From: Candidatus Thorarchaeota archaeon
Lineage (GTDB): Archaea; Asgardarchaeota; Thorarchaeia; Thorarchaeales; Thorarchaeaceae
DNA: 64,000 nucleotides
Assembly: GCA_963726195.1 (NCBI GenBank)
Contig: CAVSBO010000003.1
Coordinates: 451,011-515,010, forward strand
Direction of reading: 5' to 3'
Part shown: one piece after another, positions 24,488 through 34,574 of the stretch
Numbering within the stretch: the first letter of the stretch is position 1
Layout of the letters: the number at the start of each line of letters is the position of its first letter
The notes under the pieces: model-generated
Told to the model about the DNA's origin: nothing
Databases searched by the model: none
Seen by the model: the letters and a program-made list of their open reading frames with translations, nothing else
Made by a program: the position numbers and the translations under genes

Positions 24488-24584
24488 CGCTGATAAAGAA
24501 TGGCCGCCTATTTTAAGATGTATCGGAAGTCACGTCATGGCGTTGTCGTTCGCGTCATGCGTGACTCCGACGTGAAAGAAGAGA

Positions 24585-24701
24585 CTAACGCATAGTCAGT
24601 GCCATCACTGCTTTCTGCGCGTGAAGCCTGTTCTCAGCTTGGTCCCAGACGATTGATTGTGGACCATCGATCACTGAGTTTGCTACCTCGAAGCCACGAT
24701 C
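24585..24701 (-). pseudogene. Orphan 3-prime gene fragment (38 codons plus stop) of a carbamoyltransferase
   Basis: It translates to [38 protein letters not shown], identical in protein to the frame-corrected end of the gene at 33529-34574. No gene body lies upstream; there is an in-frame tag 15 codons upstream. Confidence 0.85.
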
Positions 24702-24853
24702 TCCTATGGAAATCCGCCTATCGGCCGATACCACAATCCCGTACTAGGGGGCGCCCTTCAAGCGTTAAGGAAGCGTTAAGGTAAAGAGAGTTAACAACCC
24801 TCGCAACAGTCAATACCCAAAGAACCGAGAGGTGTCCAAGGCTTCGGGGTGAC

Positions 24854-26731
24854 GTGATGTCGGAGGAGCGCTACAGGGCAAACGCGATACTAATCATGAT
24901 TGTGCTGCAAATAGCTTCTATATCGTTGATTCAACTGGGGCTGGGCGCAGTCCTGAGCAAGCCAGGCAGCACCGTAGACCAGCAGAGGATTATTGTCATC
25001 CCTGTATACTTCCCTGATTGCGGACCCAGCACATCGATAGACACGTTCATCCAGAGAATGTCGAAGGTCGCAGACTACTACACAGAGTGCTCCTATTCTC
25101 AGGTTTCGATAACAAGCGACGTTCTGGGTTGGGTCGAACTTGATTCGCCCATGCTCTCCTATGCTCAAACACAGACCATGGGCGAAGTCAACCATACTCC
25201 CGCGCAGGGACGAATCTTCACCGAAGCCATAGCAAAAGTCGACTCGCAAGTGAACTTCCTCTACTATGACAGGCTCATACTGGTCCACTCGGGACCCGGG
25301 GCAGATGCGAAGAACTACTCGCTCATAGGAACCTGCAACGTGCCGGGCTGGTATGCAACCAGTGACGGCAGGGGCTTCACCAAGGCTTCGATCGTATCGG
25401 AATACGATGAATTTGGCACGATTGCACATGAACTCGGGCACGATTTCGGGGCTCCAGACCTATACGACTACTACGCCAAGAATGCTGACATCACAGGACT
25501 CTATCGATGGGACATAATGAGTTCAGGCAGCTACAACGGAAACCCCATGGGTTCCATGCCTGCTCACATGAGTACTTTCACCAAGCTTCGCACAGGCTGG
25601 ATTCACCAGAACGAAATCTACAACCTCTCAAACGGCACTCTCAGAATCAATCTTGTACCACTCAGTGTGCAGGGGAATGGGTTCAGGGCACTCCGATACG
25701 ACCTGCCAGATGGCCGTTATTATTTGGTGGAATCGAGGAGCCGAGTGGGATTCGACCAAGGATTGCCCGGAGAAGGTGTGCTGGTCATGCTCGTCGACGA
25801 ATCACTGATTGTTCGGAATAGAGATGCCGTTCGGTTGCAGGTTCCCCCGTTCGCAGAAGGTCTCTGGAATGCGGAGCTGAAAGAAGGCGAATCTTTCAGT
25901 GACTCGAATAGCTCCTTTGTTGTTCGGGTTCTGAAGTGGACTACAGACTTGGCCACCGTTGTCGTGGGCACCGACCTCAGGCAGGATTGGGCCGTTTGCG
26001 ATAGGATTGGGCTCCCAGTGGGGCTAGACGTTAATGGAGTGGTGGTCACGACAGCACATGCGGACGCGTGGTTGCCGGCGACAACGACTTTCGCCGCTGT
26101 CAGTCTCTCGAACCACACATACTCTTGGTTCAATGTGTACTCCTCGAATGATTCAGGGAGAGACTGGGTACTAAAGTTCAGTACGGCAGGTTCGGGCTAT
26201 GGGATTAGCATGTATAGACTCACGGTAACCTACTATGAATGTAACGTGATTTTCGCAGGTTGGATAGGGGTCCTCAATAGTTGGCAGGCGGGTGTCTTGC
26301 TCTATAACCTCGGCTCAAAGACCTTCGGGTTCTCAAACCTTAGCTTGCTAGTGCCCGGCCTATTCATCTCGTCCGTTGCCGCATGTGCTTCGGTGGACAC
26401 TTACTACATGTGTTGTTCGGGAGGTCTCAATGGGACTAGGGGTCTTGCCTACGTCAGGTTAAGACAAGCACAGTGGAACTACACATGGGTACCAATACCA
26501 GATGTCCTTGACGCGAAGGTTAGCAACCCTCCTACTTACAACGGCATTCCTTACGTCCTGTATCAAGACGGCAACAAGCATCTAAGACTTGTTCGGTTCA
26601 ACGAAACATCTGTTCTAGTTTCCTTCGACGCGCTCTATGACGGCACGCGCGATTTCGACTTGGTTTCTTCACCCAGCAGGTTGTTGATTGCGTACCACGA
26701 TGGATCCGAGAACGAGAACAAATCGAATTGA
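24854..26731 (+). CDS. M6-family (immune inhibitor A-like) metalloprotease domain protein, N-terminal part
   Basis: N-terminal TM/signal segment, and a zinc motif in the M6 context: TIAHELGHDFGAPDLYDYY. A long beta-rich C-terminal region follows. Confidence 0.7.
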   Translation: MMSEERYRANAILIMIVLQIASISLIQLGLGAVLSKPGSTVDQQRIIVIPVYFPDCGPSTSIDTFIQRMSKVADYYTECSYSQVSITSDVLGWVELDSPMLSYAQTQTMGEVNHTPAQGRIFTEAIAKVDSQVNFLYYDRLILVHSGPGADAKNYSLIGTCNVPGWYATSDGRGFTKASIVSEYDEFGTIAHELGHDFGAPDLYDYYAKNADITGLYRWDIMSSGSYNGNPMGSMPAHMSTFTKLRTGWIHQNEIYNLSNGTLRINLVPLSVQGNGFRALRYDLPDGRYYLVESRSRVGFDQGLPGEGVLVMLVDESLIVRNRDAVRLQVPPFAEGLWNAELKEGESFSDSNSSFVVRVLKWTTDLATVVVGTDLRQDWAVCDRIGLPVGLDVNGVVVTTAHADAWLPATTTFAAVSLSNHTYSWFNVYSSNDSGRDWVLKFSTAGSGYGISMYRLTVTYYECNVIFAGWIGVLNSWQAGVLLYNLGSKTFGFSNLSLLVPGLFISSVAACASVDTYYMCCSGGLNGTRGLAYVRLRQAQWNYTWVPIPDVLDAKVSNPPTYNGIPYVLYQDGNKHLRLVRFNETSVLVSFDALYDGTRDFDLVSSPSRLLIAYHDGSENENKSN

Positions 26732-32992: not shown

Positions 32993-33244
32993 ATTCATCT
33001 TGACGTAAACATCATTCTCAACGATTCGTGACATCAACGCGATGCGCTGTCGCGCCAACTTGAGCCGGAATCTGGCATGTGATGCATGGGCAAGAGGGAT
33101 CTGCCAAGAATCTCAGCGTGATCGCAGTATGAAGTTGGTGGTTTAAAGGAAGGCCTCAATACCCCAGAAAACACAAATAACCATAGGTCAATAGACCATT
33201 TGCGCCATTAGGCTTTGCCCTTAGGGTTCAAAGCCAGCAGAGAT

Positions 33245-33327
33245 GCCGCCGTAGCCTAATGGTTATGGCGCAGGTCCGATAAACCTGTACCCTTCGTGGT
33301 TTGGGGGTTCGAGTCCCCCCGGCGCAT
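33245..33327 (+). tRNA. tRNA-like gene with anticodon-loop triplet GAU (Ile?) and non-canonical features
   Basis: Acceptor GCCGCCG, D-arm GCCT/AATGGTTA/TGGC, anticodon stem CAGGT/ACCTG with loop CCGATAA, a 15-nt variable region TACCCTTCGTGGTTT, and T-arm GGGGG/TTCGAGT/CCCCC. The 3-prime acceptor CGGCGCA pairs fully only if one G is added. Confidence 0.6.
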
Positions 33328-33626
33328 CACTATGTTCTCGAAGGTCGGGCTTAGGGATGTGATACTCGCTTCATGCTCGTTGATTGTTTCAGAAAGATGC
33401 GTCATCCGAGTAGGAGTTTCCAGAATCATCGCTGATAGAGAGATCTTGCTTCTTCTCAAACATGTCGGGGGTCACGCAGCAGCTTGATGGATGCCTGTCG
33501 CGCGTGACTCCGACGTGAAAAATAGAGATTATCGCATGGTCAGTGCCATCACTGCTTTCTGCGCGTGGAGTCTGTTCTCAGCCTGGTCCCAAACGATTGA
33601 TTGCGGACCATCGATCACAGAATTCG

Positions 33627-34574
33627 CTACTTCGAAACCCCGATCGCTGGAAGGCAGTGCATGTAGAGAGCCTTGGGTCCTGCAATCTGCATCTTCGCAT
33701 CATCACATATCCAATCCTTGTTCTTGTCGAAGACAACTTGCGTCTTCTGAAGCTCCGGTTTGCTGTTGAAGGGCGGAATGTACTGCTTGCATGTCCAAGA
33801 CTTCGGGTATACGACATTGGCACCCTCAAAGGCTTCCTCCATGTCATTCATGATTTCGAAGCTTGAGTTGTTCTCTTCGGCGTATATCTTGCACTGGTTG
33901 ATGATGTCATCGTCGAGCTCCATTCCCTTTGGATGAGCGAGCACGGTATCACAACCCATCTTTGTCGCAGCGATAATCGCGCTCTGCGGCACAGCCAGCG
34001 GCTTGTGGACGGACGGGGAATAGGCCCATGACATCACGAATTTCACACCTTTGAAGGTACCAAACTTCTCCTTCACTGTCATGATGTCAGCGAGCGCTTG
34101 GCACGGATGATACATGTCGTCCTCCATGTTAATGACAGGTATTGACGACCAGTAGGCGAAGTTGGTGACAATCTCGTGTGCCCGGCCATAAACCCAGCCC
34201 ACTGGATCGCCATAACAGCGAATCGATATAGCGTGTCCCATTCGTGCGAGAACCCTGGCTACGTCAGCCACTCGTTCTGTGGAGTATGCCTTCTCGTCAC
34301 CCTCAAGCGCGGGAGCGTATATCTTGTCAGGGTCTAGGTAGTGCGCATGCCCACCGAGCTGAGTCATTCCGGCTTCGAACGAGTTTCTTGTGCGCAGGCT
34401 CTGATTGTAGAAAATCATGAATAGCGTTTTCGAGTCCAGAAGCTTGTGAGGCTCCCCGACTGCGAATTTTCTCTTGAGGTCAGACGCGACCTCCAAGATG
34501 GTTTCGACTTCCTCTTTCGTGTAGTCTCGTAGAGTAATGAAATCTCTACCTCTGAATCCATCAGTCTTTGTCAT
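33627..34574 (-). CDS. Carbamoyltransferase family protein (OTC/ATC superfamily, YgeW/AOTC-like); the frame-corrected gene ends at 33529
   Basis: [57 protein letters not shown] and LYMHCLPA. One nucleotide is missing at 33645/33646; the remaining 38 codons (DRGFEV...ALTMR*) follow in the -1 frame. Confidence 0.85.

Follow-up and report, generated by a model that had tools for sequence, protein, structure and literature searches.

An accessory block at the conserved end of a carbamoyltransferase gene in a Thorarchaeote, possibly added by recombination with a related lineage

How does a block of accessory genes come to lie between two conserved metabolic genes when nothing in it would move DNA? 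The stretch of Thorarchaeota DNA analysed here (64 kb, hereafter the window) raises this question, as an 8.9-kb accessory block in it splits a conserved two-gene operon of paralogous carbamoyltransferases and has a copy of the same gene end on each side. A first-pass annotation of the sequence had proposed an element that entered the carbamoyltransferase gene at its 3' end and brought a replacement end. The insertion and the replacement end are supported by the analysis below. The locus consists of the following features (window coordinates; L and P numbers denote other loci and proteins used in comparison).

23413–24487, minus strand: CTleft, the downstream paralogous carbamoyltransferase (Pfam OTCace_N and OTCace on both of its pieces)
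24488–24584, minus strand: native intergenic region and 3' UTR of the displaced gene end, kept in winL, L001–L003 and L087
24585–24711, minus strand: orphan gene-end copy c2 (38 codons and TAG at 24585–24701, then a junction trace TGGAA/TCCTA up to 24711)
24712–24853, plus strand: left end of the inserted DNA, upstream of the protease gene and without homology to empty-site loci
24854–27704, plus strand: M6-family metalloprotease with a C-terminal multi-pass membrane domain (PF05547, TIGR03296)
27922–28897, plus strand: 324-aa protein with N-terminal TM helices and a helical bundle (one ORF in L085)
29287–30406, minus strand: 373-aa membrane protein (one ORF in L085, three pieces in the window)
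31012–32992, plus strand: OLD-family ATPase-TOPRIM nuclease of the stand-alone 'Old' type (AAA_15, OLD-like_TOPRIM; three pieces in the window)
33245–33328, plus strand: tRNA-Ile(GAT) (ARAGORN; Rfam tRNA, 47.4 bits)
33420–33501, minus strand: IG', a decayed intergenic copy (promoter-like block, GGTGAT and ATG all degenerate)
33502–33652, minus strand: functional gene-end copy c1 (26-nt 3' UTR, TAA, 38 codons)
33529–34574, minus strand: CTright, N-acetylornithine/ornithine-carbamoyltransferase-like (Pfam), the interrupted and repaired target

The duplicated gene end is no assembly artefact, because independent contigs span the junctions: L085, a long-read contig from another ENA assembly, crosses both (99.4% match to window 24620–33764), and L086, a short-read Logan contig, crosses the left one (99.4% match to 24321–28699), so that the junction is present in three assemblies, one of them short-read. 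The window itself carries about one indel per kb. Extra A residues at 26717, 27885 and 28380 are missing from L085 and L086 alike, and the left paralog, which is split by a 1-nt indel near 24150–24170, has an extra C relative to L001. The right gene copy was described in the first pass as terminating a full-length gene. This holds in L085; in the window the ORF at 33627–34574 ends early, as one base is absent at 33645/33646. Since L085 has the base, restoring HCLPA-DRGFEV, and the window has indels at this rate, the frameshift is probably an assembly error.

Among the cargo, the M6 protease, the OLD nuclease and the tRNA were correctly labelled, but the protease and the next 'membrane' ORF, listed as separate, are a single gene of about 950–1025 aa broken by the indel at 26717 (homologues have 1025 aa at 47% identity, and L086 has a longer ORF). 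The 324-aa protein, split by the indel at 28380, had been called HEPN-like. This label is not borne out: neither it nor the 373-aa membrane protein matches a family in Pfam, PADLOC, PHROGs or NCBIfam, and its structure model (pLDDT 74) shows a generic helical bundle that matches no fold significantly. The OLD nuclease has both its N-terminal ABC-type ATPase and its C-terminal TOPRIM domain, with PADLOC 'Old' the top match on all three pieces, and its best homologues (at most 56% identity) come from many bacteria and archaea. The tRNA-Ile(GAT) has 13 inserted nt in its variable region, and its acceptor stem is defective at 1 nt; no tRNA lies near the carbamoyltransferase gene in 34 other loci, and no second copy of its 3' end occurs in the window. 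CTright is 94% identical (aa) to Thorarchaeota OWC5, and NCBIfam NF003384, scored on the 95% identical protein P0243, gives 292.8 bits against a cut-off of 288. CTleft is 92% identical (aa) to the second gene of L001 and is the native neighbour of the interrupted gene.

The direct repeats, the only long ones within the window, lie where they had been placed (24559–24701 and 33502–33645; 87–88% identity, a single 1-nt indel falling in the 3' UTR). In their coding part 103 of 117 positions are identical; the 13 differences in sense codons are all at third positions and all silent, so both copies encode the same 38-aa peptide, and the stop codons differ (TAG in the left orphan, TAA on the right). 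The left copy is indeed an orphan fragment, its stop lying 97–98 nt from the start of the paralog. The repeated unit is longer than had been recognized, about 225 nt rather than 143 nt (24488–24711 against 33420–33652), as the right copy extends past the 3' UTR into a diverged intergenic copy, IG', up to the expected position of the paralog's ATG. Global alignment of IG' to winL, L001 and L003 gives z = 4.0–4.6, scores equalled in 0–1 of 2000 shuffles and in none of 2000 natural window segments. The native intergenic region has a promoter-like block (CCGATACATCTTAAAA, at about 24511–24526, minus strand), and GGTGxT precedes the paralog ATG; the block is kept in all real intergenic regions (winL, L001–L003, L087) and lost from IG'. 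Each copy thus covers the gene from the Asp codon in HCLP(A/C)DRGFEV to its stop, and then the intergenic stretch up to the paralog start. On the gene side both share the trace TTCCA, 2–4 nt, AGATCG (in c1, GATC at 33642–33645 and TGGAA at 33648–33652).

The site without the block exists. In ten Thorarchaeota loci (L001, L002, L003, L026, L029, L030, L032 and L087–L089) the paralogs are tandem neighbours about 100 nt apart, as had been predicted, within the same flanks as in the window: penicillin amidase upstream, and the paralog, a membrane protein and SBP_bac_5 downstream. No available empty-site relative is closer to the window than about 85% (nt). The two window copies have diverged to pS = 0.5, dS of about 0.8 and dN = 0, and even five random substitutions would all be silent with a chance of only 5e-4. 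Because every difference is silent, this divergence arose under purifying selection and predates the orphan status of the left copy, which speaks, as the first pass had argued, against a local duplication. Gene conversion from the neighbouring paralog, which had been named as a possible refutation, is excluded, since the orphan shares 61% identity with the end of the paralog but 87% with that of the right gene. Together with the decay of IG', the silent-only differences suggest that the incoming end had served a functional gene no longer followed by the paralog; on this sequence evidence its source would be a donor chromosome and not a free element.

The contents of the island agree with such a source. 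Searches of its ORFs, including versions frame-corrected from L085 and L086, against Pfam, PHROGs, PADLOC and NCBIfam found no recombinase, transposase, Cas1 or HUH domain, no replication, transfer or virion gene and no integrase remnant, which extends the earlier failure to find an integrase; mobility, replication and virion domains were likewise absent from the large ORFs over most of the window, the domain scan extending to about 51 kb. There are no inverted repeats at the island ends, and the gene end does not occur in the viral contigs of IMG/VR. The composition of the island is host-like in GC (0.510 against 0.508 in the rest of the window), tetranucleotide distance (0.100 against 0.106 ± 0.014) and GATC density (2.0 against 2.3 per kb). 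Host-like composition had been paired with the lack of an empty-site variant as what would contradict an insertion; the first is seen here, but empty sites exist. The earlier picture of a mobile element with machinery of its own yet to be identified is not supported, given the lack of mobility genes, the host-like composition, the lack of a viral contig and the parallel cases described below, which carry ordinary chromosomal genes of a sister lineage and show an exchange inside the repeat. A transposon or casposon is rejected on its own grounds: terminal inverted repeats are lacking, and the duplication is about 225 nt long and at least 12% diverged rather than a short identical target-site duplication.

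Comparable scars occur at the same gene end elsewhere. In four loci (L016, L090, L091 and L131) an intact carbamoyltransferase gene is followed by 1.76 kb with two ferredoxin-like genes and then by an orphan gene end, while in L028 the ferredoxin-like genes directly follow the carbamoyltransferase gene. The L016 insert is 89.5% identical to L028, whereas the carbamoyltransferase genes of the two are 75.8% identical. L022, an empty-site relative of L016, corresponds to the head of copy 1 joined to the tail of copy 2: at informative sites, c1 of L016 resembles the host up to position 69 and the donor from 97 on, and c2 the donor at 25–45 and the host from 48 on. This amounts to one reciprocal exchange, which lies 45–97 nt into the repeat and not at its edge. 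A third case, L023, has an orphan of the last ~10 codons and a terminator hairpin 660 nt after the gene, with a start that differs from the window and L016 position. The gene end was thus hit independently in the window, the L016 clade and L023. The gene of the window is also itself a recombination mosaic, being 95–100% identical to L001 over nt 76–330 and 71–87% elsewhere. The independent scars and the mosaic gene point to active homologous gene flow between Thorarchaeota lineages that differ by 10–25% in sequence.

On balance we lean towards a reading in which the window is a Thorarchaeota chromosome to which a segment of a related Thorarchaeote was added by recombination at a conserved gene end. 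The conserved 3' end of the carbamoyltransferase gene would have been the anchor, pairing with homologous incoming DNA; identical runs of 29 and 19 nt inside the repeat could seed such pairing. The incoming DNA would have brought its own last 38 codons, 3' UTR and already decayed intergenic copy, and with them about 8.7 kb carrying tRNA-Ile, the OLD nuclease, two membrane proteins and the M6 protease. This may have happened by a single reciprocal exchange of the chromosome with a circularised fragment (Campbell-type), or by a linear fragment with one homologous and one illegitimate joint (homology-facilitated illegitimate recombination, or 'C-terminal displacement'). Either way the incoming gene end would be joined to the resident gene body, the gene staying intact because both ends encode the same peptide, and the resident end, intergenic region and paralog would be displaced 8.9 kb downstream, leaving the old end as an orphan. 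A repeat that runs from the Asp codon to the paralog start is the product expected of a single exchange in a carried homologous segment. No element-encoded recombinase would take part, and a reverse exchange between the flanking repeats could remove the island. What we infer in this reading is the donor, the physical form in which its DNA arrived and the enzymes, which would be those of host RadA-type recombination. Contiguity of cargo and gene in a donor is seen for the L016 clade (in L028); for the window it is the decayed IG' that argues for it.

Several observations count against recombination. Neither a donor nor a second context of the window island was found, homologues of the island genes being at most 56% identical, and the closest empty-site genomes lie as far from either copy (83–85%) as the copies do from each other (88%), a distance that does not separate resident from incoming parts. 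Homologous recombination is inefficient across 12% divergence in organisms where this has been measured (PMC6382021). Most pointed is the position of the junction. The orphan starts in the window and the L016 clade, two independent events, coincide within about 4 nt, for which the chance with sequence-independent fragment ends is about 1%. In the window the island meets the orphan at a GATC (24698–24701), a site found at 0.48 of the Markov expectation there and the most avoided of 16 palindromes tested, which suggests a resident GATC restriction system.

These points bear on a classical site-specific integration, in which an attP containing the gene end would have been used by a tyrosine or serine recombinase at a short core near the HCLP(A/C)|DRG codons, the integrase being supplied in trans by another element or the host, or lost later. 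Prophage 21 and the e14 element at the 3' end of E. coli icd bring a replacement gene end, with differences that are mostly silent; as here, the insertion is in the 3' end of a protein gene, which is thereby preserved, and diverged direct repeats bracket it. Such integration would also suit the accessory and defence cargo with its tRNA gene, the near-coincident orphan starts and the boundary itself, where the six bases AGATCG are the only identical stretch and are preceded by the shared TTCCA, the longer identical runs being interior. The codon just upstream is Ala in the window and Cys in all close relatives except P0375, as would fit a c1 wholly foreign from there. We nevertheless regard this reading as unlikely. 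Prophage 21 and e14 carry their own integrase gene beside att and use a defined core for recombination, whereas neither the island nor the scanned window holds an integrase, the frame-corrected ORFs hold no remnant, and the composition is host-like. The L016 insert carries ordinary chromosomal DNA that adjoins the carbamoyltransferase gene in L028; its clade's junction lacks an identical core, its exchange with L022 lies in the interior of the repeat, and the L023 orphan starts elsewhere. Among Asgard archaea, the integrated elements HeimV1, the HeimM elements and aloposons integrate at tRNA genes, HeimV1 with a viral integrase and aloposons with giant genes and a ParA-like ATPase (PMC8813620). 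The window island resembles these as accessory DNA with defence genes in an Asgard chromosome, but it has no tRNA-site integration, viral integrase, giant genes or ParA-like ATPase.

Somewhat less likely, in our view, is that the DNA coding for HCLP(A/C)-DRG, the invariant active-site motif of the carbamoyltransferase, is a dedicated entry point for foreign gene blocks in Thorarchaeota, cut or exchanged at the Asp-Arg codons by a sequence-specific nuclease or recombinase encoded elsewhere in the genome and possibly GATC-directed. If true, any incoming DNA with the homologous gene end would be captured together with its neighbours, making this, in an Asgard archaeon, a cassette-like acquisition site that needs no integrase. 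Slightly more doubtful is break-initiated capture, in which a site-specific double-strand break at or near the Asp-Arg codons, in the resident gene or the incoming DNA, would fix the junction while repair copied or ligated homeologous DNA; the cutter would be a GATC-specific restriction enzyme or a homing-type nuclease recognising HCLPxDRG-coding DNA. The window junction lies exactly at the avoided GATC, the two junctions coincide, and L028, the proxy for the L016-clade donor, has GATC at the same Asp-Arg codon pair, a feature of only 7 of 43 Thorarchaeota genes. Yet the L016-clade junction itself has no GATC, that of L023 is elsewhere, 16 internal GATC sites show that the island is not a limit-digest fragment, and no nuclease of the required specificity was identified. 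The OLD nuclease of the island is not known to be sequence-specific. A local origin (tandem duplication or paralog conversion, followed by insertion or decay) or a two-strain assembly chimera is very improbable and already contradicted: a paralog with a related 3' end does adjoin and the assembly is error-prone, but the orphan resembles the other gene's end far more closely (87% against 61%), a local copy without function could not have gathered 13 silent differences and no replacement, the junction is in three assemblies, and a repeat mis-join would not yield a duplication with unique DNA on both sides.

Recombination at the gene end has counterparts in bacteria. In the C-terminal displacement model proposed for Vibrio cholerae (PMC5361080, citing Jackson et al. 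2009 on rhs), as in the orphan modules of Rhs, CDI and T6SS effector–immunity loci, a resident gene is paired through its conserved part with incoming DNA, which supplies a new 3' end and downstream genes, and the old end is moved downstream as an orphan that keeps a short conserved stretch. There too no element-encoded recombinase is involved, events recur at one locus, and the repeats permit later exchange. In those systems, however, the new end is a different toxin domain and the variation is selected, whereas the window ends encode an identical metabolic-enzyme peptide, so that the gene end would be only a landing pad; the host is an Asgard archaeon and the cargo a mixed accessory block. 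Homology-facilitated illegitimate and Campbell-type additive integration are known from transformable bacteria (PMC3240628; de Vries & Wackernagel 2002 and Prudhomme et al. 2002, as cited in PMC5361080), where likewise one homologous anchor suffices and insertion occurs with or without duplication of the anchor. Those are laboratory events with usually short inserts, while the Thorarchaeota products are natural and fixed in uncultivated archaea, with an anchor 12% diverged and a junction that recurs near the same codon.

The genomes of Asgard archaea are large and rich in acquired DNA, but how it was acquired is known only from a few elements that carry an integrase and sit at tRNA genes. The locus described here may be a sequence-level example of another route, in which accessory genes, here with a defence nuclease and a tRNA among them, come to lie beside a conserved metabolic gene by recombination with DNA of a sister lineage, without mobile-element machinery and leaving a readable scar. 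If the recurrent junction reflects a site-specific break, the gene end would define a hotspot of acquisition of a new kind; otherwise the locus would be a clear if ordinary instance of island insertion by recombination.

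The island of about 8.9 kb is framed by two copies of a carbamoyltransferase gene end, one belonging to the gene on the right and the other an orphan beside the paralogous gene on the left:

23413-24487, minus strand, carbamoyltransferase paralog
24488-24711, left duplicated unit, containing the orphan gene end
24559-24701, left direct repeat
33245-33328, tRNA-Ile(GAT) within the island
33420-33652, right duplicated unit
33502-33645, right direct repeat
33529-34574, minus strand, target carbamoyltransferase gene

Local alignment bears out the direct repeats of the first-pass annotation and their silent-only sense differences: their alignment has one 1-nt indel, past the stop codon, and 103 of 117 coding positions are identical, with all 13 sense-codon differences at third positions and the same 38-aa peptide encoded by both (stops TAG and TAA). 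A repeat finder returned 24575-24701 and 33519-33645 at 87% identity, together with a third, far more distant copy at 23418-23544 (61%), where the neighbouring paralog ends; no further long repeats were found in the 64-kb window. The repeats are present as first described, but they are longer. Past the 26 nt that follow the stop codon, the right copy runs on into a diverged copy of the entire intergenic region (33420-33501), the homology ending where the ATG of the paralog would stand. An nhmmer profile of the intergenic region gave no match on so short a target, and the homology was judged instead against shuffled and natural segments: in global alignments with the true intergenic regions of the window and of the Thorarchaeota loci L001 (OWC5) and L003, the copy scored 4.0-4.6 SD over shuffles, with equal-scoring controls in at most 1 of 2000 shuffles and in none of 2000 natural window segments. 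The block CCGATAYAYCTTAAAA and GGTGAT before the ATG are common to the true intergenic regions, and all are degenerate in the right copy. At the gene-side edge both copies have AGATCG, preceded by TTCCA with 2-4 unrelated bases between. Since the intergenic copy and this gene-side trace are shared, the duplicated unit is about 225 nt long. An attempt to identify the resident copy with outgroups (L001-L003 and L087) failed, as the two lie at equal distance from the outgroups and the informative sites contradict one another.

The structure is no product of misassembly. Two other contigs span its junctions: L085 (9144 nt, from another ENA assembly) matches 24620-33764 at 99.4% and covers both, and L086 (4374 nt, a short-read Logan contig) matches 24321-28699 at 99.4% and covers the left one. 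Both were reached through the 90% cluster of the island protease. In L086, about 10% of positions differ from position 140 to the contig end (1-140, window 24321-24462), while the rest, which takes in the island, the orphan, the intergenic region and 8 codons at the start of the paralog, agrees with the window at 99.9%; this reflects either two strain backgrounds for the island haplotype or a strain chimera at the contig end.

The window carries about one single-base indel per kb (26717, 27885, 28380, ~24160, 33645/33646, 31640-32100 and 35700-36650), and these break conserved genes, namely the M6 protease, a 324-aa protein, the OLD nuclease, penicillin amidase and both carbamoyltransferases. 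The extra A at 26717, 27885 and 28380 is absent from both L085 and L086, and the pattern looks like that of an unpolished long-read assembly rather than pseudogenisation. The right copy had been said to close the full gene; in the window the open reading frame stops early (33627-34574), because one base is lacking at 33645/33646, right on the edge of the repeat; L085 has a base at this point, and it restores HCLPA-DRGFEV. We take the missing base to be an assembly error, its coincidence with the boundary notwithstanding. Other gene models change as well. The M6 protease and the adjoining ‘membrane’ ORF, previously listed as separate, are one gene, the two ORFs at 27922-28897 form the single 324-aa protein, and three minus-strand ORFs at 29287-30406 form a single 373-aa membrane protein. 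The ‘HEPN-like’ label found no support; structure prediction without alignments gave two models, of which one is a generic helical bundle that matched nothing significantly and the other was too poor to use.

Every ORF of the island, frame-corrected forms among them, was searched against Pfam, PHROGs, PADLOC and NCBIfam. Assignments were limited to the M6 metalloprotease, the OLD-family ATPase-TOPRIM nuclease and the tRNA, and these databases returned no recombinase, transposase, Cas1, HUH, replication or virion domain, in keeping with the earlier failure to find an integrase. No terminal inverted repeats were found at the island, and the large ORFs scanned outside it, up to ~51 kb of the window, are ordinary chromosomal genes. 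The composition check suggested at first pass gave no foreign signal either: GC is 0.510 in the island and 0.508 outside it, in tetranucleotide usage the island lies 0.100 from the remaining sequence (0.106 +/- 0.014 for equally long stretches taken elsewhere), and GATC density is 2.0 vs 2.3 per kb. With no recombinase, virion or replication domain, no terminal inverted repeats and composition like that of its surroundings, the island does not bear out the proposal of a mobile element. Elsewhere in the window, a low-GC patch at 9000-11000 (0.40-0.45 vs ~0.51) holds a 425-aa ORF (9259-10536, minus strand) that matches nothing in Pfam and lies in a peptide ABC-transporter neighbourhood, and a 958-aa LVIVD-repeat/beta-propeller surface protein (2290-5166) has internal DNA repeats of 60 and 118 nt.

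Exact-match contig look-ups with the island protease gave no match, an IMG/VR scan with the C-terminal 73 aa of the carbamoyltransferase found no contig carrying the gene end and no relative, and the surroundings of a protease homologue (L081-L084) have nothing else in common with the island. The best homologues are 47% (protease) and 56% (OLD nuclease) identical, so that neither a second island copy nor a donor is at hand. In the island tRNA-Ile(GAT) (Rfam, 47 bits), 13 nt are inserted in the variable region and the 3' acceptor strand has a one-base defect; these could be a non-canonical intron and an assembly error, respectively. The 3' end of the tRNA is not repeated directly anywhere in the window, none of 34 other loci has a tRNA near the carbamoyltransferase gene, and a pattern search of metagenomes for tRNA-Ile with a long variable region gave no match.

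The carbamoyltransferase protein is 94% identical to that of Candidatus Thorarchaeota OWC5 and 80-92% to those of some forty other Thorarchaeota loci. In ten related loci (L001, L002, L003, L026, L029, L030, L032 and L087-L089) the paralog follows about 100 nt after the gene, as had been predicted for a site without the insert, and the flanks are those of the window, with penicillin amidase upstream and two small membrane proteins plus an SBP_bac_5 protein downstream. None of the island proteins was found in 80 genome loci. Given these empty sites and that absence, the island is an insertion into a conserved two-gene unit, and with two gene-end copies encoding the same peptide the earlier reading of an insertion that brought a replacement gene end stands. 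In OWC5, ~1.1 kb absent from the window (L001, 228-1337) lies between the penicillin amidase and carbamoyltransferase genes.

The interval between the paralogs is a general variable spot. In other Thorarchaeota (L021, L035, L036-L040, L042) it holds 0.5-7 kb of unrelated genes, including a phosphoesterase, an SNF transporter, a Ras-like GTPase and a beta-lactamase, with no detectable orphan ends. The inserts of L035 and L042, neither of which has an orphan gene end, and two ORFs beside the orphan of L023 are ordinary genes with no recombinase. The paralogs are also tandem in Anaerolineae, Actinomycetes, Caldisericota, Zixibacteria and other bacteria (L045-L080), where the pair is 68-75% identical in amino acids to the Thorarchaeota gene, suggesting that it moved between domains. 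In these bacterial loci, the two paralogs have in common, at their 3' ends, stretches of 40-55 nt with ~90% nucleotide identity.

The 13 silent differences fall on 26 synonymous sites (pS = 0.5, dS ~0.8, dN = 0); even five random substitutions would all be silent with a probability of only 5e-4. Silent-only divergence implies that the two copies grew apart while each still terminated a working gene, in separate lineages, under purifying selection before the event as had been argued, and that the present orphan has been one only briefly. The intergenic copy attached to the in-gene end lacks the signals kept in every locus where the paralog comes next. This is most simply read as an incoming end that had long belonged to a gene with the cargo, and not the paralog, behind it, on the chromosome of a related lineage with another downstream order.

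When related loci were searched for additional occurrences of the C-terminal peptide, one case was L016 (Thorarchaeota CSMAG_2458), in which the intact gene is followed by 1.76 kb with 289-aa and 88-aa ferredoxin-like genes, an orphan gene end, and then p200, in many relatives the next gene after the carbamoyltransferase gene. The insert matches L028 at 89.5% identity, and there both ferredoxin-like genes come directly after the carbamoyltransferase gene, while the carbamoyltransferase genes of this pair are just 75.8% identical; the empty-site locus L022 is 92-93% identical to L016. Of the positions that distinguish L022 from L028, those in the in-gene copy of L016 agree with L022 up to 69 and with L028 from 97, and those in its orphan agree with L028 at 25-45 and with L022 from 48. 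This pattern indicates that L016 and L022 are related by one reciprocal exchange inside the repeat, either integration or excision. The same structure occurs in L090, L091 and L131 (87-93% identity), so the event is old and inherited in the clade. In L131 (reverse complement, 13380-13450) the orphan is cut down to the last codons and terminator, and a third event is seen in L023 (11700-11790), whose orphan comprises the last ~10 codons and the terminator hairpin, 660 nt after the gene. These shorter ends, of 7-10 codons, terminator hairpin and T-run downstream of small inserts, show turnover at the site.

A phmmer search with the orphan ORF against 1.84 billion representatives returned real orphans only of the Thorarchaeota type, in L090 and L091; most short matches were untrustworthy, being contig-edge fragments, frameshifted genes or ~700-nt low-coverage contigs (L092, L093). 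Among general ornithine carbamoyltransferases, none of 120 metagenome matches to the conserved gene-end DNA pattern was an orphan. One 108-aa metagenomic ORF (P0377), a fragment of a bacterial ornithine carbamoyltransferase, has the C-terminal segment twice in one reading frame, perhaps a bacterial case of tandem gene-end duplication.

For the origin of the island we lean, if only modestly, towards recombinational addition over a dedicated integrase, with the carbamoyltransferase gene end serving as homology. A circularised fragment would have entered the chromosome by a single reciprocal exchange, or a linear fragment by one homologous and one illegitimate joint. We favour this because the exchange in L016 and L022 is interior, the L016 cargo is chromosomal, orphans vary in length (L023) and no recombinase was found. 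What recombinational addition does not explain is where the orphans begin, which is at (A)GATCG, the Asp-Arg codons, in the window and at the Arg codon in the L016 clade, ~4 nt apart at most; for two independent events with random ends in a 1-kb gene, the chance of such a coincidence is ~1%. These near-coincident junctions, with GATC evidence pointing both ways, make two alternatives possible. A site-specific recombinase acting in trans would account for orphan starts lying so close together, and we rate it rather unlikely, as each of the four observations behind recombinational addition counts against it.

The second alternative, a site-specific break at the junction, draws on GATC, which stands exactly at the homology boundary in both repeat copies. 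Over the whole window GATC occurs 144 times against 297 expected from trinucleotides (0.48 of the Markov expectation), making it the most avoided of 16 four-base palindromes tested (others 0.63-1.07); this avoidance suggests long-term exposure to a GATC-specific restriction system. At the Asp-Arg codon pair, GATC is present in just 7 of 43 Thorarchaeota genes, and that of L028, our proxy for the donor of the L016 insert, is among them. We nevertheless hold such a break to be distinctly improbable, for the L016-clade junction is without GATC and the island has 16 internal GATC sites. The same 16 sites dismiss the island as a restriction fragment from a limit digest.

The mosaic structure of the target gene, judged from identity along its length, indicates that its sequence was recently exchanged between lineages by homologous recombination: window and L001 are 95-100% identical over nt 76-330 (~34245-34499) and 71-87% elsewhere, with flanks at 79-89%. 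Among known patterns, two are closest. Phage 21 and e14, integrase-bearing prophages, replace the gene end of icd in like manner, but the recombinase that defines them is missing here. The other, ‘C-terminal displacement’, belongs to polymorphic toxin loci and has been put forward to explain orphan 3' ends at Rhs/T6SS loci by one homologous plus one illegitimate joint (PMC5361080); it is alike in mechanism and unlike in purpose, since both ends here encode the same peptide. The same pairing of one homologous with one illegitimate joint has been measured in bacteria as homology-facilitated illegitimate recombination (PMC3240628). Known Asgard elements integrate at tRNA genes, and some (HeimV1) carry a viral integrase (PMC8813620). 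The locus keeps a readable trace of recombination between lineages of Asgard archaea, and with it an unexplained recurrent junction.
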